Source: a virus | Lineage: Duplodnaviria; Heunggongvirae; Uroviricota; Caudoviricetes | Virus record (IMG/VR): IMGVR_UViG_2737471831_000003 | Span: 1-12,424 of that record | Length of the DNA stretch: 12,424 bases | Direction: 5' to 3' (one strand) | Shown here: positions 1-12,424 of the stretch, in pieces | How the letters are laid out: each line of letters starts with the position of its first letter | Numbering within the stretch: the first letter of the stretch is position 1 | The notes under the pieces: generated by a model | Seen by the model: only the letters and a program-made list of their open reading frames with translations | Database searches by the model: none | What the model was told of the DNA's origin: nothing | Made by a program: the position numbers and the translations under genes

Positions 1-1131
1 TCACCATGCTACTTTGCTCCATCCTTTGCCTCGGTCGTCATGATAACGATCGGTTTGTTGTTGTGTTTTGTGACCAAGTAGTTTTTGTGTATCTAACCCC
101 TGTTCTTTATACAGGCGTTCAGATAACGACCTTTGCTCATGGAATGTTGCAGGTGAACCTTTCCCCCAGTCAATTCCTGCTAAGTCCCTCGCTTTACTGA
201 AATTCATCGTCAATGTGTTAGATTTAACCTGTGTTCCACGTTCAGCCTGTGAAGTCGTACGGGAAAAATGTACAAGGTATGGGCTGACTGCATAGTCACG
301 GCAGCGGGCTACTACATCGCGTAAACTCCAGTTAATCGCATTGAGGTGAAGAGAAAGAGGAATTGCGATTTTGCTCCCGGTCTTTTCCTGAATGACGTGA
401 AGATGATCCTCCCAAATATCACTAAATTTCATTTTGGATATATCTCCCAAACGCTGCCCAGTGACTAAAGCTAGGAGCATGGCATTTCCCATGTAACGAT
501 GAGTGGCGTCTGCGATATCGAATATTTTTTGCCATTCTTCCAGGCTGAGGCGTTGACGGGTAATTTTTCTTCTTGGTTGTTTAGTGGCTAATGCTGGGTT
601 ATAGCCAGGCGGAACTTCGCCGTAATGCTGTGCTTCCTTAAACACATCGATCAATACAGACCTTACGACTTGGGCCATTCTCGGCTGTCCCGCAGAGATA
701 TACTCTTCAAGCAATTGTGCTATATCTCTGACATCAACGGCCGAGATCAACTTCATTCCTGCTCTTTCCCTGAGCAAGGATACTGGTTTGGCTTTCTGCT
801 TATAGGTGTTGAGTCTTATATCACCACTTTTCAGCCTATCGTCTTGGATAGCCTGGTAACGGTCTAACCATGTAGATGTTGTGATCGCTTTTCCTTTGCT
901 GGTTGCGATCCTGTCACTGATAGCCAGAATCTGCCGGGTTCTTTGTTCAGCCAGTCGAGTGTTGGCCTCAGTGGCAATAGCGATAGCTTCAGCTTCGTTT
1001 GTTCCCAAAGCATGGAATTTTCCTGTTACTGGATGCTTATACCGCCAATAGACTTTATTTACCTTTCGGCTATAAAGCGGATATAAGTTAGGGACTGAAA
1101 CATTATTCTTACGCGGTCTGGCTGCCATCAC
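1..1131 (-). CDS. int: Tyrosine recombinase, lambda Int-family phage integrase
   Basis: 376-aa ORF. By-eye alignment to lambda Int: N-terminal PNLY arm-binding region; catalytic region TFHEQRSLSERLY...LLGHK...RYHDDRG (lambda: TFHELRSLSARLY...LLGHK...QYRDDRG) with conserved His and Tyr-nucleophile context. Stop codon at positions 1-3; first codon GTG at 1131, ATG at 1128; 5' end overlaps xis by 23 nt as in lambda. Confidence 0.93.
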   Translation of the reverse strand: MMAARPRKNNVSVPNLYPLYSRKVNKVYWRYKHPVTGKFHALGTNEAEAIAIATEANTRLAEQRTRQILAISDRIATSKGKAITTSTWLDRYQAIQDDRLKSGDIRLNTYKQKAKPVSLLRERAGMKLISAVDVRDIAQLLEEYISAGQPRMAQVVRSVLIDVFKEAQHYGEVPPGYNPALATKQPRRKITRQRLSLEEWQKIFDIADATHRYMGNAMLLALVTGQRLGDISKMKFSDIWEDHLHVIQEKTGSKIAIPLSLHLNAINWSLRDVVARCRDYAVSPYLVHFSRTTSQAERGTQVKSNTLTMNFSKARDLAGIDWGKGSPATFHEQRSLSERLYKEQGLDTQKLLGHKTQQQTDRYHDDRGKGWSKVAW

Positions 1132-1354
1132 TCAAAATCCGTTGCAAAAGTAATGAGTCATTTTTCTTAATTACTGGTGTTACCAGCTCTCCAACTAACT
1201 CGGCGTCCTCACGCACTCGCCATAACCGGCCTTGTTTCATGGCCGGTGGACAAAATAAATTCTGCTTAGCATAACGACGCAATGTGGACACACTTGGAGG
1301 ATTACTTCTGTATTTTTCAGAAGCCCATTCTTCAAGAGTTAACATTTGAAGCAT
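1109..1354 (-). CDS. xis: Excisionase (lambda Xis-like)
   Basis: 81-aa ORF; LTLEEW...PPSVSTLRRYAKQNLFCPP.K.GR resembles lambda Xis LTLQEW...PRSLETVRRWVRECRIFPPPVKDGR. RBS AAGGTGA 6 nt upstream of ATG at 1354 (second in-frame ATG at 1345). Overlaps the int start. Confidence 0.85.
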   Translation of the reverse strand: MLQMLTLEEWASEKYRSNPPSVSTLRRYAKQNLFCPPAMKQGRLWRVREDAELVGELVTPVIKKNDSLLLQRILSDGSQTA

Positions 1355-1397
1355 ATGCGATCACCTTATTACTTCACTAACTGTTCAGTCTCTGCAT

Positions 1398-1700
1398 ATC
1401 GACCCTGCAAGGTCGATTAGTTTCTCCACAAAACAGAGAAGAGCACCTGTGGCCACAACTACCAGGATGGATTGGGTTATGAGCCCGTCGTCCGGTGATG
1501 CTCTTCTCTGTTTTGTAAAAAGGACGGTACCAGCCGGAAGCAAGGGTACAAGCTGGTACCGCCAGGACTACACACAGCATAAAGTTGTGGTTCCGGGGGC
1601 CTCCCGGTGCCTGGCGAAGGTTGCACACCAGGCGGGTGGGTATCCACAGAAGGTCGACTGTCAGCCTCAACCTTAACCCGCGTGCGCTGAGCCGCATTCA
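1398..1700. other. GC-rich, highly self-complementary intergenic element (candidate structured RNA or protein-binding site); function unknown
   Basis: Contains a perfect 18-bp inverted repeat, a perfect 9-bp inverted repeat (1526-1534 GGTACCAGC / 1552-1560 GCTGGTACC, 17-nt loop) and a 7-bp hairpin (1398-1404 ATCGACC / 1411-1417 GGTCGAT). ORFs called here translate to Arg/Pro/Gly/Cys-rich peptides typical of non-coding GC-rich sequence. Confidence 0.35.
1428..1516. repeat. Perfect 18-bp inverted repeat flanking a 53-bp spacer
   Basis: 1428-1445 ACAAAACAGAGAAGAGCA is the exact reverse complement of 1499-1516 TGCTCTTCTCTGTTTTGT; read directly from the sequence. Confidence 0.85.
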
Positions 1701-1816
1701 CCACAACGCTAAGGATTCTCTCTGGTTGAAAATACTTAGCTGTTATGTGCCTGTCTTTTCACCACTTCAGGCTCGGTGGTATCCTTTTAAGCCCGTATTC
1801 ATAAAAGGAAAATCAA

Positions 1817-2062
1817 ATGACTTTTGATGAAAAAGAACTTGATAATGCAATTAATAAAATCATCGTAACGTCGCTCTTTTCCTGTCTCAGCGACACTCAG
1901 CAGAAACAGTTCTACGAATCGGCTTTCAACATGATCGAGCGTTGTTGTTTCTGCGATGCCGACGAGTTACCTGAAAAAATCAGGAAACAGTTGGCTGATG
2001 CTCTTCGAGTGCGACTTTTTGACCAATTTTCTGAAATGTACTCTCCGAATTTGGACAAATAG
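1817..2062 (+). CDS. Hypothetical small protein (81 aa)
   Basis: ATG at 1817 preceded by AAGGA (1805-1809) at 7-nt spacing; helical-looking, non-repetitive translation; imperfect hairpin 2073-2096 shortly after the stop. The 3' end overlaps the convergent minus-strand ORF 1980-2255, so only one of the two may be real. Confidence 0.45.
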   Translation: MTFDEKELDNAINKIIVTSLFSCLSDTQQKQFYESAFNMIERCCFCDADELPEKIRKQLADALRVRLFDQFSEMYSPNLDK

Positions 2063-2255
2063 AAAAAGGCCATTTCCATTCAGGGTCTGATGGAAAGACT
2101 TCAGCCTGTTCCAAAGCACGGCGTAAAGAGAACACAACTCCAGCCATAATCTGATGTTTCCCATTGGTCCAGCTATCGCCGCTCTGAGCTACAGGAGCGG
2201 CTATGTCGTATGACCAAACGACTTCACCACTATTGTTTAAAATCTGGACTTTCAT
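1980..2255 (-). CDS. Hypothetical protein (91 aa), early-left operon position
   Basis: ATG at 2255 lies 9 nt downstream of the stop of the zinc-finger ORF (operon-like packing); GGAGG is 12 nt upstream, a long spacing. The C-terminal third overlaps the plus-strand ORF 1817-2062 and passes through the 2073-2096 hairpin. Confidence 0.35.
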   Translation of the reverse strand: MKVQILNNSGEVVWSYDIAAPVAQSGDSWTNGKHQIMAGVVFSLRRALEQAEVFPSDPEWKWPFSICPNSESTFQKIGQKVALEEHQPTVS

Positions 2256-2263
2256 TTTGTTCT

Positions 2264-2485
2264 TTAACCTCCAGATTTCCGCGCATCTAAAGGCGCATTC
2301 TCATTTGGTGTGAACTGAATAGTTGTGCTGATATTGATTAATGCCCCGACACACAAGACTACGCACTCAGAGCAGATAGCAACTTCATCTTTTCCGCCTT
2401 TGGCGATGATTTTTTTTGCCTGCAGCTCGTTTGCGCCACAAAACGAGCATGTGAAATAACGGTTCATTTGCGCTCTCTTACACAT
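2264..2485 (-). CDS. Small protein with ClpX-type C4 zinc-finger motif
   Basis: CSFCGANELQAKKIIAKGGKDEVAICSECVVLC matches the ClpX N-terminal zinc-binding domain pattern (CSFCGK...x18...ICDECVDLC). Likely start is the internal ATG at 2467 (67 aa; GAGAG 5 nt upstream) rather than 2485. Confidence 0.7.
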   Translation of the reverse strand: MCKRAQMNRYFTCSFCGANELQAKKIIAKGGKDEVAICSECVVLCVGALINISTTIQFTPNENAPLDARKSGG

Positions 2486-2564
2486 AGTATTTAACGAATC
2501 ATCTTGGACTTCATATGCCCCAGGCGGCTACTTCGTGGGCGTCCTGCCTGTTCATTGTTTTAAC

Positions 2565-2625
2565 ATCTTTAAGTTGTAATTTAGTTGTGGTTTTGAATAT
2601 TGTCAACAACTTTATGTGGTTTGAA
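2565..2625. promoter_or_regulatory. Putative OL operator/promoter cluster (AAGTTGT / ACAACTT heptamers)
   Basis: AAGTTGT at 2571-2577, AGTTGTG at 2583-2589 and ACAACTTTATG at 2606-2616; the same heptamers and the ACAACTTTATG motif recur in the cI-cro intergenic region. Lies between divergent genes (zinc-finger ORF leftward, TerB/BRCT ORF rightward). Confidence 0.4.
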
Positions 2626-2669
2626 CGAGTAGCCAAGGAGTGCAAGGATTATCAAAAAAAGGAGGTTGT

Positions 2670-3560
2670 ATGGAAGACGCGCTTTACGCTTTTAATTACA
2701 CACAGAACCGGGACAAGTTATTTGCTAACTTGATTAGCATAATTGATGGAATCATTGCAGATGGAGTTGTCCGTGAAGAGGAGGTTCTTTACTTAGATAC
2801 ATGGTTACTTGAAGCAAAGCAGATTATCAATAATGGAGTTATAAAAAGTCTATCAGCACGGGTGTCGGATATTCTTGCGGATGGAATAATCACATCAGAA
2901 GAACGTGATGACCTTAAAAATAGCCTTCTCCAAATACAGAGGGAAATTCTTGATATCCCTGAAATTGATTTTTACTCCAAGGATGTAGATGTCCATTTAC
3001 TTAATGGACTATGTAAAGGATTAATTGCTGATCGGAACTTAACTCAAGAAGAAATAAGATATCTTAATTGGTGGCTTGAGCAAAATGGAGCTTTGAAGAA
3101 CAACTACCCAGGAAAAAAACTTTATGCACTTGTAAAGGAAATTCTTAAAGATGGGGTTATTACTGAAGATGAGAGTTTAACTCTACATAAGGCATTAGTA
3201 GACTTCACAGGATGTGACTTGGAAAGTGGGGTGGTGGATGGTTTGGCGACCAGGCTGCCTATTGATGTAGGGGCTTCGATAGAGTTAGAGGGTAAAACCT
3301 ATTGTCTTACAGGCACTTTTGTTGCAGGAAAGAGAGCCGTAGTTGAAAATTTGATTAAAAATGCTGGTGGGAACATCAGTAGTGGAATTACTCAAAAGTT
3401 GGATTTTTTAGTAATTGGGACGCTTTCCTCCCGTGATTGGAAATTCTCAAGTCACGGAAGGAAGATCGAAAAAGCTATATCTTATAGGGATGATAATGGT
3501 GCAAAACTTAAAATTATTTCTGAAGAAATGCTTTTCGATGCATTACCAAGTTCGCGATGA
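2670..3560 (+). CDS. Protein with four TerB-like helical repeats and a C-terminal BRCT domain (296 aa)
   Basis: ATG at 2670 preceded by AGGAGG (2660-2665); in-frame GTG at 2640. Four repeats of the form h-ADG-h-h-T/R-x-E-E (IADGVVREEEVLYL, LADGIITSEERDDL, IADRNLTQEEIRYL, LKDGVITEDESLTL) resemble TerB/DjlA-N motifs. C-terminus GKTYCLTGTFVAGKRAVVENLIKNAGGNISSGITQKLDFLVIG...KLKIISEEMLFDAL matches the BRCT pattern of NAD-ligase C-termini. AT-rich; 3' end overlaps the cI 3' end by 18 nt. Confidence 0.8.
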   Translation: MEDALYAFNYTQNRDKLFANLISIIDGIIADGVVREEEVLYLDTWLLEAKQIINNGVIKSLSARVSDILADGIITSEERDDLKNSLLQIQREILDIPEIDFYSKDVDVHLLNGLCKGLIADRNLTQEEIRYLNWWLEQNGALKNNYPGKKLYALVKEILKDGVITEDESLTLHKALVDFTGCDLESGVVDGLATRLPIDVGASIELEGKTYCLTGTFVAGKRAVVENLIKNAGGNISSGITQKLDFLVIGTLSSRDWKFSSHGRKIEKAISYRDDNGAKLKIISEEMLFDALPSSR

Positions 3561-4229
3561 CCAGAATACCCTACCTATAACATGAATTCTGGCTCGTCTA
3601 TCTTCAAAGGTGAGTATTTCATCTGGGTACTCATCTTTGTTGAAGCTTCTAAGAATCAAGCCACCGTCAGGTAAGTTGATAAGTATTTTAACCCTTAGCA
3701 ATACACCATCTCGTACGGCATAAAGATCGCCATCACGAATAGGAACGGTTTGAGAAATATCAACGGCAACAAGATCTCCATTATTGAGAACCGGTAATAA
3801 ACTGTTCCCCCATATTTTTACGATCTTGGCATTAGATGCACATACGCCAGATTTTCTCAAATCTGCTCTTCTTAACGGAAACCAGTCAATAGCTGATTCA
3901 ACTATTTCAGCCAGACATCCGTTACCTGCCGATAACTCGACATCTAAAACAGGAATGTTTACGAAAATATCGGGGTCTAATGCGGTGCTTTCTGCTTCTT
4001 TTACAACAAGATCAGGTATGGATGCGTTGTCTTCAATACCAAGTTGTAACCACTTTTGTGATACACCTAAAACTTTTGCAATTTCTTTAATTTTGCGCGG
4101 TTGTAGAGTTTCGCCATTCTCTATTTTGGCTACAGATTGTTGTGAAAGTCCAATTTTTTCAGCTAGTTGAGCTTGGCTCATGCCAGCTTTCTCTCTACCT
4201 ATCTTTAATCGTTCTGCCAGTGTTTTCAC
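3543..4229 (-). CDS. cI: Prophage repressor, cI/LexA-type (XRE HTH + S24 peptidase domain)
   Basis: 228 aa; N-terminal HTH (MSQAQLAEKIGLSQQSVAKIENGE); C-terminal S24-like autocleavage domain (GNSLLP...GDLVAVD...LLRVKIL). GTG start at 4229 with GAGGG 7 nt upstream; divergent from the cro-like gene. Confidence 0.9.
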   Translation of the reverse strand: MKTLAERLKIGREKAGMSQAQLAEKIGLSQQSVAKIENGETLQPRKIKEIAKVLGVSQKWLQLGIEDNASIPDLVVKEAESTALDPDIFVNIPVLDVELSAGNGCLAEIVESAIDWFPLRRADLRKSGVCASNAKIVKIWGNSLLPVLNNGDLVAVDISQTVPIRDGDLYAVRDGVLLRVKILINLPDGGLILRSFNKDEYPDEILTFEDRRARIHVIGRVFWSSRTW

Positions 4230-4254
4230 AACATATCCCTCTCTTTTTTGATGA

Positions 4255-4345
4255 GGTTACAACTTTATGTTTTAGCTTTCCAACACCTAAAAGTTGTGAT
4301 AAAAGTTGTTAATGTTGTATTCTTGCAACTCGTAACAACTTAACT
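4255..4345. promoter_or_regulatory. Putative OR operator/promoter region (pRM/pR) between cI and cro
   Basis: ACAACTT at 4259-4265 and 4335-4341; AAGTTGT at 4291-4297 and 4303-4309; these are the same half-sites as in the 2565-2625 cluster. Sits in the 135-bp divergent intergenic region. Confidence 0.5.
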
Positions 4346-4364
4346 ACCTAAAAAGGAGAAAGCT

Positions 4365-4613
4365 ATGACACCTGAGCAATTAGCCTTATCGGAGGCAATC
4401 GCTCTGGCTGGTGGTCAATCAGAATTGGCTCGGAAGCTCACAGCCAGCAGCGGTCATTTAGTAAAGCAACAACATGTCTGGAACTGGTTGAACAGAGAAA
4501 AGCGTCCCCCTGCAAAGCTCTCGATATTCATTGAAAAGACCACTGGCATATCAAAAGAAAAATTACGTCCAGATATTTTTCAAAAGATTAAAGATTCATC
4601 AGATGAAAAGTAA
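4365..4613 (+). CDS. Cro/YdaS-like small HTH regulator
   Basis: 82 aa; AGGAG at 4354-4358, 6 nt before the ATG; GGQSELARKL...V.NWL.......P......IEK.TG.SKEKLRPDIF pattern as in YdaS/Cro-type proteins; first gene rightward of the repressor. Confidence 0.8.
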   Translation: MTPEQLALSEAIALAGGQSELARKLTASSGHLVKQQHVWNWLNREKRPPAKLSIFIEKTTGISKEKLRPDIFQKIKDSSDEK

Positions 4614-4635
4614 CCACAGTTTTAAGGAGATAGCC

Positions 4636-5187
4636 GTGGGTAAGCATCACTGGAAAGTAGAAAAACAGCCTAAGTGGTACGTGAAAGCTGTCAGAAAAAC
4701 TATCGCAGCGTTGCCGGGGGGTTACGCTGAAGCTGCTGACTGGCTGGATGTAACAGAGAACGCATTATTTAACCGCCTTCGTGCCGATGGCGATCAGATT
4801 TTCCCGCTGGGATGGGCAATGATTTTGCAACGTGCTGGTGGAACTCACTTCATTGCTGACGCTGTGGCGCAGTCTGCAAATGGCGTCTTTGTGTCTCTTC
4901 CTGATATCGAGGATGTGGACAACGCCGATATCAACCAACGCCTGCTGGAGGTCATTGAACAGATCGGCAGTTATTCAAAACAGATTCGTTCAGCAATTGA
5001 AGACGGTGTAGTTGAACCGCATGAGAAGACAGCAATTAACGATGAGCTGTACCTCTCAATTTCGAAGCTGCAGGAGCATGCAGCACTGGTCTACAAAATC
5101 TTTTGCGTTTCAGAAAGTAGTGACGCCCGCGAGTGTGCAGCTCCGGGCGCCGTGGCGTGTCGTGACTGTGGAGAAACTAACGCATGA
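4636..5187 (+). CDS. Hypothetical regulatory protein in the cII position, possibly YdaT-family
   Basis: Strong RBS AAGGAG (4624-4629) 6 nt before in-frame GTG at 4636; alternative ATG at 4603 overlaps the cro stop. The family assignment is from memory of YdaS-YdaT pairs and is tentative. Confidence 0.55.
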
Positions 5188-5522
5188 ACAGTTTAACAAC
5201 ACACTACCGTCGCTCGCAACTGATTGCGCTTCCGGTTCCGGGTGGAAAAGCGAAGGTGGAGTATTGCTATGCAGTGAATGTACCAGGTGACAGGGAAATT
5301 GTAACCCACAGCTTTGCAGAGTGGGCTGTGGGTGATTTCAACCGGCAGAAGGAGACAGTCCTTTGCGACAAGTTAACCGCTGGTTCAAAGATCACTACGG
5401 AGTGCCCGTCAGAGTCATTCGTTGGGAACCGGAAACACAACGGGTTATCTACCTCCGCGAAGGTTATGAGCATGAATGCTTCAGTCCGCTCGAACAGTTT
5501 CGTCGTAAATTCAGGGAAATAG
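5184..5522 (+). CDS. Hypothetical protein (112 aa, ATG-initiated); C-terminal half doubtful
   Basis: ATG at 5184 overlaps the upstream stop (ATGA coupling). The N-terminal ~55 aa look protein-like, but the C-terminal half is Ser/Asn-rich and low-complexity, while an alternative frame over the same DNA looks more protein-like. Confidence 0.3.
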
Positions 5523-5542
5523 AGGTCGGTCATGAGCACTAA
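5363..5542 (+). CDS. Alternative small ORF (59 aa, TTG start), frame-2
   Basis: AAGGAG at 5349-5354 lies 8 nt before TTG at 5363. Translation [59 protein letters not shown] is charged and non-repetitive; stop at 5540-5542 overlaps the start of the replication gene. Confidence 0.35.
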
Positions 5543-6473
5543 ATTAACCGGCTATGTATGGGATGGTTGCGCTGCATCAGGCATGAAGTTATCCAGCGTG
5601 GCAATTATGGCCCGCCTGGCTGATTTCAGTAATGACGAAGGTGTGTGCTGGCCATCAATTGAAACCATTGCCCGTCAGATTGGCGCGGGGATGAGTACCG
5701 TCAGAACGGCTATCGCACGGCTGGAAGCAGAAGGCTGGTTAACGCGTAAGGCGCGTCGCCAGGGTAACCGCAATGCGTCGAATGTTTATCAGCTTAACGT
5801 TGCGAAGCTTCAGGCAGCGGCATTTTCTCAACTGTCAGATTCTGACCCGTCAAAATCTGACGCATCAAAATCTGACCCGTCAAAATTTGATGCGTCGAAA
5901 TCTGGGAAAAAAGCGGGTTTTCACCCGTCAGAATCTGGTGGGGATCCGTCAGTAAAATCAAAACATGATCCGTCAGATAAAAAACCTTCTCGTCCGGACG
6001 CTTCGCAACCGGACACGCAGAAGGCTGAACAGGATTTTTTAACTCGCCATCCTGATGCGGTTGTATTCAGCCCTAAAAAGCGCCAGTGGGGAACGCAGGA
6101 TGATTTGACCTGCGCACAGTGGCTCTGGAAAAAAATCATCGCCCTGTACGAGCAGGCCGCCGAATGTGACGGCGAGGTGGTTCGTCCCAAAGAACCGAAC
6201 TGGACAGCCTGGGCAAACGAAATTCGCCTGATGTGTGTGCAGGATGGTCGTACTCACAAACAAATCTGCGAGATGTACAGCCGCGTCAGCCGCGATCCGT
6301 TCTGGTGCCGTAACGTGCTCAGCCCGTCGAAGCTGCGGGAAAAATGGGATGAGCTTTCCCTGCGCTTATCGCCGTCCGTCAGCACGTACACCGAAAAACG
6401 CGAAGACCCGTACTTCAAAGCCAGTTACGACAACGTGGACTACAGCCAGATCCCGGCAGGATTCAGGGGGTGA
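5532..6473 (+). CDS. Phage replication initiation protein (N-terminal winged-HTH, low-complexity linker, DnaT-like C-terminus)
   Basis: 313 aa; GAGGT 5 nt before the ATG. N-terminal HTH typical of phage replication initiators (SIETIARQIGAGMSTVRTAIARLEAEGWL); central SDPSK-type linker encoded by the iteron array; C-terminus ends ...NWTAWANEIRL...QIPAGFRG, resembling (from memory) the C-terminal domain of primosomal protein DnaT (...IPPGFRG). Confidence 0.8.
   Translation: MSTKLTGYVWDGCAASGMKLSSVAIMARLADFSNDEGVCWPSIETIARQIGAGMSTVRTAIARLEAEGWLTRKARRQGNRNASNVYQLNVAKLQAAAFSQLSDSDPSKSDASKSDPSKFDASKSGKKAGFHPSESGGDPSVKSKHDPSDKKPSRPDASQPDTQKAEQDFLTRHPDAVVFSPKKRQWGTQDDLTCAQWLWKKIIALYEQAAECDGEVVRPKEPNWTAWANEIRLMCVQDGRTHKQICEMYSRVSRDPFWCRNVLSPSKLREKWDELSLRLSPSVSTYTEKREDPYFKASYDNVDYSQIPAGFRG
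5831..5985. repeat. Iteron-like direct repeat array (15-bp period), candidate replication origin
   Basis: Four consecutive 15-bp units at 5842-5901 (CTGACCCGTCAAAAT, CTGACGCATCAAAAT, CTGACCCGTCAAAAT, TTGATGCGTCGAAAT), plus degenerate CCGTCAG-containing copies to about 5980 and an A-rich stretch (5976-5985). Confidence 0.6.
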
Positions 6474-6475
6474 TC

Positions 6476-6964
6476 ATGAGTCTTTTGAATGAAGTTCAGA
6501 AATTCATTGAAGCCCATCCGGGGTGTACTTCCGGAGACATTGCGGATGCTTTTGCAGGTTATTCACGGCAGCGCGTTCTGCAGTCTGCAAGCAAGTTACG
6601 TCAGAGTGGGCGTGTGGCTCACCGTTGTGAAGGAGATACACGCAGACATTTCCCGCGCCTGACTGAGAGAGCGCAGGAGCCGGAACCACAACCAGTTCGT
6701 GAAACCAGACCTGTGCGCAATTTCTATGTCGGCACTAACGATCCCCGGGTGATTTTGTGCCTGACCCGCCAGGCTGAAGAACTGGAGTCAAGGGGCTTAT
6801 ACCGTCGTGCTGCAACCGTGTGGATGGCGGCATTCCGTGAAAGCCACTCCCAGCCAGAACGAAACAATTTTCTGGCGCGTCGTGAGCAGTGCTTACAGAA
6901 AAGCAGCAAGCGCGCTGCATCGGGTGAAGAGTGGTATCTGTCAGGGAATTACGTGGGGGCGTAA
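6476..6964 (+). CDS. PerC-like transcriptional regulator domain protein
   Basis: ATG at 6476 with GGGGG 5 nt upstream (GTG at 6470 also in frame). C-terminal AEELESRGLYRRAATVWMAAF resembles the PerC/Pch motif (A..LE.RGLWRRAA..W), recalled from memory. Confidence 0.55.
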   Translation: MSLLNEVQKFIEAHPGCTSGDIADAFAGYSRQRVLQSASKLRQSGRVAHRCEGDTRRHFPRLTERAQEPEPQPVRETRPVRNFYVGTNDPRVILCLTRQAEELESRGLYRRAATVWMAAFRESHSQPERNNFLARREQCLQKSSKRAASGEEWYLSGNYVGA

Positions 6965-7290
6965 TGACGACGTTAACTCAATGCCAGCAGCAGGTGCTGG
7001 ATATGCTGATTTCTTATCAGAAAGAGCGTGGCTTTCCGCCAACCAATCAGGAGGTGGCAACCATGCTGGGATACCGTTCGGTGAATGCAGCGGTGGAGCA
7101 TCTTCGCGCACTGGAGAAAAAAGGCGTCATCACGATAAAGCGTGGCGTGGCACGGGGGATAACGCTTCATACCGCTGTGAAGGACGACGACAGCGAGGCG
7201 GTCGGGATTATCCGCGCACTGCTTGCCGGTGAGGAAAACGCCAGGCTGCGTGCAGCCCACTGGTTACATGAGAGGGGCCTGAAAGTATGA
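6964..7290 (+). CDS. LexA N-terminal DNA-binding-domain-only protein (no S24 peptidase domain)
   Basis: ATG at 6964 overlaps the upstream stop (TAATG). QQQVLDMLISYQKERGFPPTNQEVATMLGYRSVNAAVEHLRALEKKGVITIKRGVARGITL aligns closely with E. coli LexA residues ~8-70 ([61 protein letters not shown]). The protein ends after ~108 aa with no catalytic Ser/Lys domain. Confidence 0.8.
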   Translation: MTTLTQCQQQVLDMLISYQKERGFPPTNQEVATMLGYRSVNAAVEHLRALEKKGVITIKRGVARGITLHTAVKDDDSEAVGIIRALLAGEENARLRAAHWLHERGLKV

Positions 7291-7676
7291 AGCTGATTCT
7301 GCCTTTTCCGCCCAGCGTGAACACGTACTGGCGACACCCCAACAAAGGGGCGTTTGCTGGTAAGAGCCTGATAAGCGCGGCGGGGCGCAAATTCCAGAGC
7401 GCGGCGTGTGCAGCAATAGTTGAGCAGTTACGTCGTCTGCCAAAACCAACGTCGGCACCTGCTTCAGTGGAGATCGTGTTGTTTCCACCGGATAACCGGA
7501 TCCGCGATCTGGACAACTATAACAAGGCGCTGTTTGACGCCCTGACCCACGCGGGTGTGTGGGAGGACGACAGTCAGGTGAAAAGAATGCTGGTGGAGTG
7601 GGGGCCGGTTATCCCGGAAGGGAAGGTCGAGATCACTATCAGTAAGTACGAGAAAACGGCGGGTGCAGCCGCCTGA
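7287..7676 (+). CDS. rusA: Holliday-junction resolvase RusA
   Basis: 129 aa; LPFPPSVNTYWR and RDLDNYNKALFDALTHAGVWEDDSQV match the RusA motifs ([38 protein letters not shown]). ATG overlaps the upstream stop (ATGA). Confidence 0.92.
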   Translation: MKLILPFPPSVNTYWRHPNKGAFAGKSLISAAGRKFQSAACAAIVEQLRRLPKPTSAPASVEIVLFPPDNRIRDLDNYNKALFDALTHAGVWEDDSQVKRMLVEWGPVIPEGKVEITISKYEKTAGAAA

Positions 7677-7695
7677 TTAAGAGGAGAAACGAAGT

Positions 7696-8493
7696 ATGAA
7701 TAATCTGATGGTCATTGATGGTATTGAAGTTCGTCGTGATGCTTATGGGCGTTACAGCCTGAACGATCTGCACAGGGCTGCCGGTTCTCAGGATAAGCAT
7801 AAGCCTGCATTTTGGCTCCGCAATGAGCAAACCGAACGTTTAATAAGCGAGTTGCAGATTTGCAACTCGGTCAATATAGAGCCAGTTAACGTTATTCGTG
7901 GCGGAAATAACCAGGGGACGTATGTCTGCAAAGAACTGGTGTATGCCTATGCAATGTGGATCAGTCCGTCATTCCATCTGAAGGTGATCCGTACTTTCGA
8001 TATGGTAACCAGCGCACCGGAAAAATTATCCGGGCAGGCTGCTGACAAGATGCAGGCTGGTGTGATTCTGCTGGACTTTATGCGTCGGGAGTTAAACCTG
8101 TCTAACTCATCTGTGCTTGGGGCCTGTCAGAAACTCCAGGAGGCTGTTGGTTTACCGAATCTGGCACCGCGCTATGCCATTGATGCCCCTGCTGATGCAC
8201 ACGATGGCTCAAGTCGCCCGACACTGTCACTGAGTGCACTGCTGAAACAGTATGGTATCCGCCTTACGGCTAATCAGGCATATCACCAGATGGTGAAACT
8301 GGGGATCGTCGAACAGCGCGAACGATACAGCCGTACCGCGATTAATAACATCAAAAAATTCTGGTCGCTGACGGCGAAAGGCTGCATGTTCGGCAAGAAC
8401 ATCACCAGTCCGGCAAATCCGCGTGAGACGCAGCCGCATTTCTTCGAATCCCGATTCCCTGAGCTGTTAAAGCTGCTCGATACCGTTCATTGA
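7696..8493 (+). CDS. KilA-N domain protein
   Basis: 265 aa; GAGGAG RBS at 7681-7686. N-terminal ~100 aa (IDGIEVRRDAYGRYSLNDLHRAAG...PAFWLRNEQT...YVCKELVYAYAMWISPSFHLKVIRTF) fit the KilA-N DNA-binding domain pattern. Confidence 0.8.
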   Translation: MNNLMVIDGIEVRRDAYGRYSLNDLHRAAGSQDKHKPAFWLRNEQTERLISELQICNSVNIEPVNVIRGGNNQGTYVCKELVYAYAMWISPSFHLKVIRTFDMVTSAPEKLSGQAADKMQAGVILLDFMRRELNLSNSSVLGACQKLQEAVGLPNLAPRYAIDAPADAHDGSSRPTLSLSALLKQYGIRLTANQAYHQMVKLGIVEQRERYSRTAINNIKKFWSLTAKGCMFGKNITSPANPRETQPHFFESRFPELLKLLDTVH

Positions 8494-8494
8494 G

Positions 8495-9490
8495 GTGACC
8501 GTGAGAGCGCTACTGACCCCTGAGATTGCCCCGCGTATGGGGATCGTATTGTTCAGACCCGGTTCAGAGCTGATGCCCCTGTTTATGCAGGGGCGTGTCC
8601 TGCTGGAGCCTGAGCCGGAGCGTTATTCATCTTTCGCCAGTGGTGCCGTTCCGGCGGCATCACAACCGCTGGCGGATGATCCTGCCGTTCGGGCCGTGTT
8701 CCGCAATGAGGCAGTGATCCGTCGTGCTGGTGGCGTGGAATGTCTTGAAAGCTGGTTACTTCGTGAAAAAGGCTGCCAGTGGCCTCATTCCGACTGGCAC
8801 AGCGAGAACATGACAACAATGCGACACGCTCCGGGCGCAATCCGTCTGTGCTGGCACTGCGATAACCAGCTGCGCGATCAGTTCACGGAACGGCTGGAAT
8901 CAATGGCAACGGATAACTGTGCCCGCTGGGTGTTGTCTGTTGTGCGTCGGGATCTCGGTTTTGATGATAGTCACGTTGTGACAATGCCGGAACTGTGCTG
9001 GTGGCTGATTCGTAATGACCTGGCGGATGCCTTACCGGAAAGTGCAGCCCGTAAGGCACTGAGATTACCGAGGCCTGTTGTGCCGTCTGTCACCCGGGAA
9101 AGTGACCTTGTGCCTTCGGTTCCTGCCACCAGCATCATCCAGGATAAAGCGAAAAAGGTGCTGGCGCTGAAAGTGGATCCGGAGTCGCCGGAGTCTTTTA
9201 TGTTACGCCCAAAACGTCGCCGCTGGGTTAATGAAAAGTACACGCGCTGGGTTAAGACACAGCCGTGTGCATGTTGTGGAAAGCCTGCTGATGATCCCCA
9301 CCACCTGATAGGTCACGGTCAGGGTGGAATGGGAACAAAAGCGCATGACCTCTTTGTGTTGCCTTTGTGCAGAAAGCATCACGACGAGCTGCATGCGGAT
9401 ACCGTGGCATTTGAAGAGAAGTATGGCTCCCAGCTGGAGCTGATATTTCGTTTTATCGATCGTGCGCTGGCAATTGGCGTGCTGGCCTGA
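8495..9490 (+). CDS. DUF968-like phage protein with C-terminal Cys/His-rich (HNH-like) motif
   Basis: 331 aa; likely start GTG at 8501 (GAGG 5 nt upstream) rather than 8495. C-terminal CACCGKPADDPHHLIGHGQGG...HDLFVLPLCRKHHDELH is a zinc-binding/HNH-like signature; the position after rusA/KilA-N matches DUF968 genes in Qin-type prophages (from memory). Confidence 0.65.
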   Translation: MTVRALLTPEIAPRMGIVLFRPGSELMPLFMQGRVLLEPEPERYSSFASGAVPAASQPLADDPAVRAVFRNEAVIRRAGGVECLESWLLREKGCQWPHSDWHSENMTTMRHAPGAIRLCWHCDNQLRDQFTERLESMATDNCARWVLSVVRRDLGFDDSHVVTMPELCWWLIRNDLADALPESAARKALRLPRPVVPSVTRESDLVPSVPATSIIQDKAKKVLALKVDPESPESFMLRPKRRRWVNEKYTRWVKTQPCACCGKPADDPHHLIGHGQGGMGTKAHDLFVLPLCRKHHDELHADTVAFEEKYGSQLELIFRFIDRALAIGVLA

Positions 9491-9507
9491 TTTTGTGGAG
9501 AAAGTTG

Positions 9508-9855
9508 ATGCGTGATATGTATGAAGTATTGGACCGCTGGGGAGCATGGGCTGCAGCAGATAACAGTGGCGTGGACTGGCAGCCGATAGCTGCAGGCTTC
9601 AAGGGGCTTTTACCTCATGGCAAAAAGTCCCGGATTCAGTGTGATGATGACGAAGGCATTATGATAGACAGTTGTGTGGCTCGGTTGAGAAAGTATAAAC
9701 CAGAGGAATATGAGCTAATCATAGCTCACTTTGTCATTGGTATCTCATTACGCACTATTGCCAAGAAGAGAAGATGTTCAGATGGCACAGTTAGGAAAAA
9801 ATTGCAGACTGCCTTGGGGTTTGTTGAAGGATGTATTTGTTTGATTGAGTTCTAA
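9508..9855 (+). CDS. Q: Late-gene antiterminator Q (phage 82/QuuD-like family)
   Basis: ATG at 9508 with GGAG 7 nt upstream (an upstream TTG at 9493 is also in frame). VLDRWGAWAA...DWQPIAAGFKGLL...SRIQCDDDEGIM resembles E. coli QuuD as recalled; Cys pairs consistent with a Q zinc finger; last early-right gene before the lysis cassette. Confidence 0.75.
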   Translation: MRDMYEVLDRWGAWAAADNSGVDWQPIAAGFKGLLPHGKKSRIQCDDDEGIMIDSCVARLRKYKPEEYELIIAHFVIGISLRTIAKKRRCSDGTVRKKLQTALGFVEGCICLIEF

Positions 9856-9883
9856 AAAGAATGAGGCGTAAGCCTCATTCTTT
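9856..9883. terminator. Bidirectional intrinsic terminator between Q and the convergent membrane-protein gene
   Basis: Perfect 12-bp stem (9856-9867 AAAGAATGAGGC / 9872-9883 GCCTCATTCTTT) with GTAA loop, A-run on one side and T-run on the other. The minus-strand gene's stop codon (9875-9877) lies in the stem. Confidence 0.75.
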
Positions 9884-10444
9884 ATCTTTAATTATAAGTT
9901 TCGATTTTTCATCATGCATTTTGTCTATCATAAAATACATACCTAATGCCGTTGTGTATATAATGTTGCATATGGTACTTAAATAAATAAACAAAAGTAA
10001 TGATTTCACTAGTGGATATGATGAAAGGTGTAATTCCTTGATGCTTGCACTGGTTAGTTGAAGTGCTCCTCCAACGAAATACAGCGCGATGCTCATAAAC
10101 GCTAAATAACCAAATAGATAAGTGAGGAATTTACGCCTTGTAAGTTTTTTACCTTTTAATACCGGAGGTATGCCATGCATAACTTCATCCATACCATCCT
10201 TACTGAAGGTTGCAACTGCAGCCATAGATGCAATGTAAAAACCAGATAGTATTTGAAGTATCCCGTTTACTAAAGACACAAGACTATCCTTCCCGAGAAG
10301 TGAGATGGTTTTCGGTAAGTAATAGATGGATAAAGTAATAATTGCAGCAGTGAAAATGGGTAAAACCCAGTCAAAAAATCGCTTCTCAGGATGCTTTATG
10401 CGTAGGTAGTCTATAGGTGTAAAAACCTTAGATAAAACATACAT
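9875..10444 (-). CDS. Small integral membrane protein, 4 predicted TM helices (189 aa)
   Basis: Start ATG at 10444 with AGGAGG 5 nt upstream (the longer ORF to 10537 would overlap the upstream gene). Four hydrophobic segments: FFDWVLPIFTAAIITLSIYYL, LVSLVNGILQILSGFYIASMAAVATF, FLTYLFGYLAFMSIALYFVGGAL, LVKSLLLFIYLSTICNIIYTTALGMYFMI. AT-rich. Confidence 0.75.
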   Translation of the reverse strand: MYVLSKVFTPIDYLRIKHPEKRFFDWVLPIFTAAIITLSIYYLPKTISLLGKDSLVSLVNGILQILSGFYIASMAAVATFSKDGMDEVMHGIPPVLKGKKLTRRKFLTYLFGYLAFMSIALYFVGGALQLTSASIKELHLSSYPLVKSLLLFIYLSTICNIIYTTALGMYFMIDKMHDEKSKLIIKDKE

Positions 10445-10476
10445 ATATGCCTCCTTTTGACAGGTTTTCCATGCCT

Positions 10477-11412
10477 TCACTTTAACATAAAGTTTTGCAT
10501 TTTTGCGAGAAGTTCTTCGTGAAATGCTGTTTGGCAAACGGCAATTGTTGATGCCAACACTGCTTTTTCACGTTGTGCCAATTGTGCTGTTGCGAGTTCC
10601 TGTAAGCTCATTTCTTTTCCGATGGAAACAAGATCTGATGAAACGCGTTTATTTTTGTCTTTATAAGAAATTCTTAACATTGTATACTTTCTACCACGAA
10701 GTTTGTCATATGCAGACTTAATCGCCTTAATTGCACCCTCTCCGCGACGTATTTTTGTTGATAGCTTTAGTGTTTCTTCTTCAACCATTACTGTGCCATC
10801 ATCATCTAAAGAGTTATCTTTAAAGCGACGAGTAGCAGTAAGTCCACATAAATAACCAGTGGATAGAGATTGCTCAAGTGTTGTTGCAGCCAAAAAATCA
10901 ATGTCGAAAATAGGTCTGCACTTAAGTTCTTTTTTCCCTCCTGAACGGATAAAGGAAAAATTATTTTCTCGCAGGAAATAAGTTAAAGCTTGGGCTAATA
11001 AACCTCTGGTAATGCCCGGAACTTCTTCTAAAATTGCCTCATAACAATCTTGGAATGATGAGTCGCTCGGTCTTTTTTTGATAAGCACATGAGCAGAGTA
11101 CCCCATACCTTCATCATTTTGCTTTTTCTCAATTCTGGTTTCACCAGTTTTTATGTTGGAAAAGGCGGGATCAGAAGCATCTTTATTTATATATTGAAAA
11201 AGCAATTTCAGGTAATTTTCATCGTCTTTTATGGATAGCAATCTTATGACAGAACGTCCTTTGTTTAATTCGTAAACAGCTTCTCCTTTGTTATAGCGAT
11301 TTTTTAAAACAGGAATACAGTTTACTAAAGGCATGTCAGGTGCGTCATTAGGATACTTCTTTAAAGTAACCTGGCATTTGATCATGAAACGTTCATTATC
11401 TCCCAAGAGCAT
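10477..11412 (-). CDS. Hypothetical soluble protein (311 aa) with a possible Pol-beta-type nucleotidyltransferase signature
   Basis: ATG at 11412 with AAGGA 6 nt upstream; AT-rich. IRSGGKKELKCRPIFDIDFL (residues ~156-175) fits the hG[GS]-x9-13-DhDh pattern; an acidic cluster SLDDDG lies ~30 residues downstream. No family recognised with confidence. Confidence 0.7.
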   Translation of the reverse strand: MLLGDNERFMIKCQVTLKKYPNDAPDMPLVNCIPVLKNRYNKGEAVYELNKGRSVIRLLSIKDDENYLKLLFQYINKDASDPAFSNIKTGETRIEKKQNDEGMGYSAHVLIKKRPSDSSFQDCYEAILEEVPGITRGLLAQALTYFLRENNFSFIRSGGKKELKCRPIFDIDFLAATTLEQSLSTGYLCGLTATRRFKDNSLDDDGTVMVEEETLKLSTKIRRGEGAIKAIKSAYDKLRGRKYTMLRISYKDKNKRVSSDLVSIGKEMSLQELATAQLAQREKAVLASTIAVCQTAFHEELLAKMQNFMLK

Positions 11413-11472
11413 ATCTGTTCCTTATACGAGCACTAATACTGATTGCTGTTTTTAGTTCAGCAGAACCAAAGG

Positions 11473-11501
11473 TTAACTGATTGTGCTTGATAGTATATAT
11501 T
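11473..11501 (+). promoter_or_regulatory. Putative late promoter (pR'-like)
   Basis: TTAACT (11473-11478), 17-bp spacer, TATATT (11496-11501), in an AT-rich region about 240 bp upstream of the holin and about 70 bp upstream of a plus-strand terminator hairpin. Sequence-only prediction. Confidence 0.3.
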
Positions 11502-11566
11502 TTTCACTAACGCGTACGCAAAAAGTATTGTATCGTGTTAAGAGTGGTTACTTCGCCACACAACTT

Positions 11567-11596
11567 AAACCCGCCGCTGAGCGGGTTTTGTCGTTT
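11567..11596 (+). terminator. Putative tR'-like intrinsic terminator upstream of the lysis genes
   Basis: 8-bp stem (11567-11574 AAACCCGC / 11581-11588 GCGGGTTT) with 6-nt loop CGCTGA, followed by TGTCGTTTCT. Confidence 0.5.
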
Positions 11597-11740
11597 CTGG
11601 GCCTAGGGATTCGTTGGGCCTGGTCTATCCCGCAGTTATCCATTGGCTCGGCTTCTTTGACGTTTCCGCTTCTGATTTGCGGTACATGATGTTCCCTCAA
11701 TTTGCACCTGCTGTATCAGCGAGGTGAGAGATAACTACAA

Positions 11741-12067
11741 ATGCCTCATAACCCAAATACCTGGCTGGAGTTGGTCCAGAGCTGGTGGCGTGGAGACACA
11801 CCGCTGGGCGCAGTGATTATGTCGATTGTTATGGCTGGTTTACGTATTGCCTATTTTGGCGGTGGTGGCGGCTGGAAGCGAAAAACACTCGAAATTCTAC
11901 TCTGTGGCGCTCTGACGCTGACTTTTGCATCCGCTCTTGAGTATGTCGGATGGCCTAAATCACTATCTGTTGCCATTGGTGGTGGGGTGGGGCTGATCGG
12001 TGTCGATGCTATTCGTGGGGCTGCAATGAGAGTAATCGGTAACAAGTTTGGTGGCTCTAAGGAGTAA
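11741..12067 (+). CDS. S: Holin, lambda S-like (class I)
   Basis: 108 aa with three hydrophobic segments and a charged C-terminus, similar in size and hydropathy to lambda S; stop 3 nt before the endolysin start. Confidence 0.8.
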   Translation: MPHNPNTWLELVQSWWRGDTPLGAVIMSIVMAGLRIAYFGGGGGWKRKTLEILLCGALTLTFASALEYVGWPKSLSVAIGGGVGLIGVDAIRGAAMRVIGNKFGGSKE

Positions 12068-12070
12068 TTT

Positions 12071-12424
12071 ATGCAGGTACTAAATTCCCAGCGTAAAGCT
12101 TTCCTCGATATGGTGGCATGGTCAGAAGGAACGGATAACGGGCGACAACCGACACGTAACCACGGTTATGATGTTATTGTTGGCGGCGAACTGTTTACTG
12201 ATTACTCCGATCACCCTCGCAAACTTGTCACGCTAAACCCCAAACTCAAATCAACAGCCGCCGGGCGTTATCAGCTTCTTTCACGCTGGTGGGATGCTTA
12301 CCGTAACCAGCTTGGTTTGAAAGACTTTTCCCCCAAAAGCCAGGACGCAGTGGCATTGCAGCAGATTAAAGAGCGTGGTGCTTTACCGATGATTGATCGC
12401 GGTGATATGATCCTACCCACGTAA
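12071..12424 (+). pseudogene. R: Endolysin R (lambda-type lytic transglycosylase), truncated after ~112 codons
   Basis: AAGGAG 6 nt before the ATG. The first ~112 residues are near-identical to lambda R as recalled (NSQRKAFLDM.AWSEGTDNGRQ.TRNHGYDVIVGGELFTDYSDHPRKLVTLNPKLKST.AGRYQLLSRWWDAYR.QLGLKDFSPKSQDAVALQQIKERGALPMIDRGD); the frame then reads MILPT-stop, encoded by IS-end sequence. Lambda R is 158 aa. Confidence 0.85.
12408..12424. mobile_element. Terminal inverted repeat of an IS3-family element (IS3 IRR-like) at the window edge
   Basis: TGATCCTACCCACGTAA matches the outer end of the IS3 right inverted repeat as recalled (TGATCCTACCCACGTAATATGGACACAGGCC...). The element body lies beyond the window. 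Confidence 0.6.

Follow-up and report, generated by a model that had tools for sequence, protein, structure and literature searches.

The analysed stretch of DNA (12,424 nt, hereafter the window) comes from a lambdoid prophage of Escherichia coli, of which it forms the left arm. Its features are listed in Table 1. The window is limited by the stop codon of the integrase gene at its start and by a stop codon supplied by an insertion sequence (IS) at its end. Apparently its ends were cut at gene boundaries, and this would account for there being only 17 nt of the IS in it. The underlying assemblies end a few bases past the window, as short-read assemblies do at repeats.

Table 1. Genes and other features of the window, in gene order
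Feature	Position	Strand	Basis and remarks
Integrase gene int	1–1128	−	PF09003/PF00589; annotated as intE in matching genomes
Excisionase gene xis	after int in gene order		PF07825
BRCT-domain protein, 296 aa	2670–3560	+	PF00533, E = 1.3e-6, C-terminal
cI-type repressor (S24 peptidase domain), cro-like gene, Phage_CP76-domain gene in the cII position	following the BRCT gene
Replication protein, then PerC, RusA, KilA-N and DUF968 genes	between the Phage_CP76 gene and Q
Late antiterminator Q, 115 aa	9508–9855	+	PF06530 (Phage_antitermQ) on the identical gene in contig L003
Two-gene cassette, 189 aa and 311 aa	9875–10444, 10477–11412	−	between Q and S
Promoter-like site (11473–11501) and hairpin with T-run (11567–11588)	11473–11588	+	consensus scan; upstream of S
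Holin S, 108 aa, intact	11741–12067	+	PF05106 (Phage_holin_3_1), E = 5.7e-25
Endolysin R, native part	12071–12407	+	codons 1–112 and the first two bases of codon 113; lambda lysozyme alignment
Predicted target site ATA	12405–12407		junction GGTGATA/TGATCC vs empty site GGTGATATCCGT; 3-bp duplications at other IS3 copies
IS3 right inverted repeat tip, outermost 17 nt	12408–12424	−	exact match to K-12 IS3A
Stop codon TAA from the IS	12422–12424	+	translation and sequence; ends the 117-aa product

The gene of the BRCT-domain protein adjoins the cI repressor gene, the 3' ends of the two overlapping, and its product gives a weak match to the PADLOC candidate PDC-S48 (E = 2.4e-7). For the cassette between Q and S, PADLOC gives matches to the candidate defence system PDC-M53 (E = 1.6e-39 for M53B and 1e-17 for M53A); neither of its genes has a Pfam match. 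The same PDC-M53-matching cassette is present in uninterrupted relatives of the prophage. In the relatives L015, L016 and L017, the interval between Q and S holds differing minus-strand cargo, including a DUF6650 protein, an NA37-domain protein paired with a 392-aa partner, and a DNA methylase together with an AAA_15/AAA_21 ATPase. This interval behaves as a variable hotspot for cargo or defence genes. The promoter-like site and hairpin upstream of S resemble lambda pR'/tR' in their layout, the analogy being one of position only, given that the counts of such signals do not exceed those in shuffled sequence. The lysis cassette opens with the holin gene, annotated as "phage holin, lambda family" in matching genomes. 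Q, S and a truncated R stand in this order; Rz/Rz1, which would lie past the IS, are on none of the junction-carrying contigs, and the uninterrupted relatives do have them.

Among phage records, vB_EcoM-689R6 and the Shigella phages SfII and SfIV come closest. They resemble the window in the early region, Q, S and R, with identity of 94.6–96.6% over 47–58% of the window. Unlike in the window, R is intact in these phages, and the cargo between Q and S varies among the relatives. The prophage also resembles e14, in that its integrase is annotated as intE and its relatives adjoin icd. The icd site is the seat of the defective prophage e14 in K-12. Outside the window, between int and icd, relatives (L033–L040, at about 7767–11605 of those loci) carry a gene for an 858-aa AAA_13/SMC-type ATPase and a 366-aa gene. 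Some prophages at the icd site are heavily deleted: in L033 int-xis borders directly on the lysis genes, and a fused gene occurs in L040.

Endolysins of the lambda R type are lytic transglycosylases (GH104, often annotated as GH24). Positions 12071–12424 form an ATG-started ORF of 117 codons lying directly 3' of the lambda-family holin gene. Residues 3–113 of its product align closely with lambda lysozyme (PDB 3D3D/1AM7; E = 3e-69), the catalytic Glu at position 19 is retained, and the product matches PHROG 90 "endolysin" with E = 8.6e-43. A Pfam search gave no model for R, the intact 158-aa protein included. The native part of the gene shares 99.7% identity with the intact R of E. coli H22 and, as far as the junction described below, is 100% identical to the R genes of three E. 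coli drafts (L006, L008 and L011). The ORF falls short of the full-length lambda-R-type fold of about 158 aa, its native part stopping at residue 112; the C-terminus of the 117-aa product reads ...ALPMIDRGD-MILPT. An earlier note on this DNA had rightly described R as truncated and had put the loss at about 45 residues, the correct figure being 46 (113–158). In contrast to lambda R, the product thus lacks the upper lip and the sugar-contacting stretch 122–135, and carries the IS-encoded MILPT instead.

The place where R ceases to be native was located by comparison with uninterrupted copies. Megablast of the segment 11700–12424 against 5426 complete E. coli genomes gave 2735 matching records. 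The best 30 of them, from 99.7% identity (strain H22) down to 96.8%, all end at query position 709, that is, at window position 12408. In searches with the whole window against E. coli genomes and the phage collection, the alignment end also fell at 12408 in nearly every record listed. Aligned pairwise with H22, the window has GGTGATAT/GATCCTACCCACGTAA, whereas H22 has GGTGATAT/CCGTCAGGCTATCG and goes on to a 158-aa protein (the slash marks the junction). The near-side layout of the junction is ...GATCGCGGTGATA/TGATCCTACCCACG.

The sequence beyond the junction belongs to IS3. IS3 is a 1258-bp element of the IS3 family that transposes by a copy-out/paste-in mechanism; complete copies elsewhere have this length and are annotated with a programmed frameshift. 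Positions 12408–12424 (TGATCCTACCCACGTAA) are identical to the right-hand tip of IS3A (insE1/insF1) of K-12 MG1655, read inward (L002, 2968–2984, minus strand). With up to two mismatches allowed, 0.01 matches to this 17-mer would be expected in the window by chance. The element begins at 12408 with its terminal TG, and both the 5'-TG start and the right-end sequence are those of IS3. Its right end faces the 5' part of R and its transposase genes are antisense to R. It contributes (M)ILPT, that is, four to five foreign residues, to the R frame.

Exact-sequence look-up of the truncated protein yielded eight contigs from Logan and ENA; six contigs were found by another exact look-up. Logan contig L003 (SRR9984754) runs 29 nt into the IS and is identical to IS3 at 29/29 positions. 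The ENA metagenome scaffold L004 runs 54 nt into it, with 54/54 positions identical both to K-12 IS3 and to the IS3 copy of L005. The junction-carrying contigs stop 12–37 nt beyond the stop codon, so that 17–54 nt of IS3 are seen in the window and the contigs. The recognition of an IS3 right inverted repeat in the earlier note is thus borne out by 17 of 17 nt in the window and 54 of 54 nt in an independent scaffold. The divergent tail was correctly assigned there, but the element starts with the TG at 12408 and not with the A of the "ATG". Compared with full copies of IS3, only the tip of the element is available at R, and the insertion site is found in none of the 5426 complete E. coli genomes. 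No publication came up in a literature search for the sample accessions.

Uninterrupted versions of the same prophage arm are close at hand. The drafts L006, L008 and L011 agree with the window at 2877/2877 positions immediately before the junction, and their sequence then continues as TCCGTCAGG... to an intact 158-aa R. At least 1000 contigs carry an intact full-length R with the N-terminal allele of the window, and the interrupted allele is rare (6–8 contigs). The prophage of GCA_005391245.1 differs from window positions 1–7128 at 2 of 7128 nt (99.97% identity), and from positions 2513–12408 by two mismatches and one in-frame 18-nt gap (99.80% identity). Beyond its intact R lie genes for Rz, HNH, TerS, TerL, portal, protease, capsid and tail sheath. 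The KilA-N gene (7696–8493, plus strand) encodes 265 aa in the window and 259 aa in GCA_005391245.1; this difference is probably the single in-frame 18-nt gap, the sole indel between the two prophage arms. The other genes of the window are full length in comparison with the relatives, and R is the sole damaged gene in 12.4 kb. A junction-spanning query found no match covering the junction in the 5426 complete E. coli genomes, and the exact junction was absent from GTDB species representatives, IMG/VR and JGI metagenomes. Since the remainder of the arm hardly differs from complete prophages that have no interruption, we infer from these sequence comparisons that IS3 entered R recently and in a single lineage of a prophage that is otherwise complete and in circulation.

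The far side of the IS was sought using the sequence predicted for a simple insertion. In that case the IS3 left end ...GGGTAAGATCA would adjoin ATATCCGTCAGGCTATCG, and the far side would read ...GGGTAAGATCA, ATA and TCCGTCAGGC (also written as ...CTATTGCTGGGTAAGATCA/ATA/TCCGTCAGGCTATCG). The predicted junction (IS3 left end, 3–6 nt, then CCGTCAGGC) was not found in JGI metagenomes. Exact look-up of eight predicted far-side ORFs (contig-edge forms with 20–36 nt of IS and a TTG-start form) gave no hit in a collection of 15 billion proteins. When the predicted IS/R fusion peptide was used as a query for homologues, the best short matches were only unrelated fusions or contig-edge partials. These negative results are weak, since a 56-aa edge ORF may escape gene calling, and where k-mers are long the call is prevented by an in-frame stop within the IS; they are also what an IS-bounded deletion would give. 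Two candidates for the far side (P0047 and P0049) were rejected as deletion derivatives from other samples. The Rz alleles P0031 and P0045, tried as a route to a contig starting in IS3, led only to intact arrangements or ordinary fragmented contigs.

Full copies of IS3 were available in related prophages. All three are 1258 bp long and are simple insertions with a 3-bp duplication (ATG in L005; CTC and AAC in L029), in keeping with simple insertion as the usual result. The copies of L029 lie at 5299–6556 and 19398–20655 of a related prophage of PS1Thumoskin9, with duplications AAC and CTC, respectively. The copy of L005 (4019–5276) lies inside Rz of a different prophage, of E. coli 2017.01.04CC. 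Evidently, lambdoid prophages have been struck by IS3 repeatedly. The records H35–H38 were considered as a second case of the R junction and rejected, as there IS3 lies inside Rz of a different prophage. In the Logan contig L022 (SRR10691609, 1100–1125), an unrelated deletion derivative, early-region DNA is joined to the remainder of R at CCATG/GATATCCGT; this join is 1–3 nt from the IS3 insertion point of the window, which may be a coincidence.

We consider it highly probable that an IS3 of 1258 bp has inserted in codon 113 of R in an SfII/SfIV-like lambdoid E. coli prophage that has an e14-type integrase and adjoins icd. Three other explanations were weighed against this one. It is scarcely credible that faulty assembly produced the junction or that a natural variant of R accounts for the short protein. 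Contigs do often end or misjoin at repeats, and the window holds just 17 nt of foreign sequence. However, the junction is identical in eight contigs from two assembly pipelines, and the tail matches IS3 at 54/54 nt, starting exactly at the terminal TG; on these grounds both a natural short variant and an assembly chimera were rejected. Moreover, no intact R ends in this way, the full-length members having 158 aa, and the other short R proteins, where the sequence was read or the source named them, are contig-edge partials or unrelated fusions. An unlikely, though conceivable, alternative is that IS3 forms the edge of a deletion or inversion, arisen by adjacent deletion or by recombination between two IS3 copies. 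Rz, the late genes and the remaining part of R would then have been lost or relocated, and the prophage would be a remnant reaching from int to the truncated R. The failure of the junction, edge-ORF and fusion-peptide searches to find the far side is in line with this, as are the heavy deletions of icd-site prophages in some strains (L033 and L040). The junction probe matches a median of three places per E. coli genome, mostly with its IS3 half, and these places are substrates for recombination. In three LTEE populations, large deletions accompanied about 17% of IS movements, and every such case involved IS150, an IS3-family element (PMC11708052). On the other hand, the far-side searches could have missed an uncalled edge ORF, and each of the three complete IS3 copies described above is a simple insertion flanked by a 3-bp duplication. 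The retained arm is also almost identical to complete prophages and therefore shows no sign of wider decay.

The earlier note had described the element as a likely cryptic, domesticated prophage, which would mean that the lysis defect is old and the element has been kept for cargo beneficial to the host. The PDC-M53-matching cassette and the immunity genes of the window could indeed benefit the host, and icd is the e14 site, at which deleted relatives occur. Nevertheless, long domestication appears improbable. Neither several lesions or large deletions nor divergence from functional relatives, as expected of a cryptic or decayed prophage, is found within the window: R apart, no gene is damaged in 12.4 kb, and up to 12408 the identity to an uninterrupted complete prophage is 99.8–99.97%, reaching 2877/2877 nt against the empty-site alleles. 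The interrupted allele is known from 6–8 contigs, against at least 1000 with intact R, and from 0/5426 complete genomes. The cassette is also present in intact relatives, therefore its retention is independent of the lesion.

With IS3 inserted in codon 113, right end toward the 5' part of R and transposase genes antisense, the R frame read on into the IS gives 112 native residues, MILPT and a stop. Directly past the 1258-bp IS, after a duplicated ATA, the remaining part of R would most likely follow, together with Rz and the late operon. In lambda lysozyme, Glu19 is catalytic and residues 128–141 form the upper lip (PMC6916166). Asn122, Ile123, Ala125 and Phe135 hydrogen-bond the bound sugars, while Trp124, Ser126, Tyr132 and Gln134 come to within 0.4 nm of these (PMC6916166). 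As the loss of residues 113–158 takes away the upper lip and most of the residues that bind sugar, the truncated R should be non-functional. Judging from this structure, the enzyme is very probably inactive and the prophage lysis-defective. The lysis defect proposed in the earlier note is thus a sound inference, given that the lip and Asn122, Ile123, Ala125 and Phe135 are all missing.

In R-defective lambda, the holin kills the cell without lysis and the progeny are trapped unless another endolysin is supplied. Upon induction of the prophage studied here, the holin would likewise still kill the cell, the wall would stay uncut, and the virions would be trapped unless another prophage provided an endolysin. 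Late transcription, if antiterminated by Q as in lambda, could well continue through the IS, and the downstream late genes may then still be expressed. One could further suppose that the insertion was selected as a disarming of the prophage, IS3 in R removing the cost of lysis while the immunity genes and the PDC-M53 candidate cassette are kept. We regard such selection as very improbable; under it, the lineage would persist for that reason, at which the occurrence of the same junction in several sequencing runs might hint.

Similar lesions are known from other E. coli prophages, where a lambdoid prophage has a host IS in or beside late or lysis genes that are essential. In the O157 Sakai prophages, nu1 of Sp4 is disrupted by an IS, and an IS lies upstream of the lysis region in Sp5 (PMC2669165). 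Other IS-disrupted prophages differ in the gene affected and the position of the IS; in the window the target is the endolysin gene, and the prophage is undamaged elsewhere over 12.4 kb. For annotation it follows that the endolysin gene of the window is a pseudogene and that the end of the region is set by the IS and by trimming at gene boundaries. The neighbouring cargo cassette should not be read as sitting in an old domesticated remnant. IS insertion in late or lysis genes is a well-documented first step in the inactivation of E. coli prophages, and IS3 in R, a known element in a known gene, is an ordinary mutation of this kind, adding one more instance with a clean empty-site comparison.
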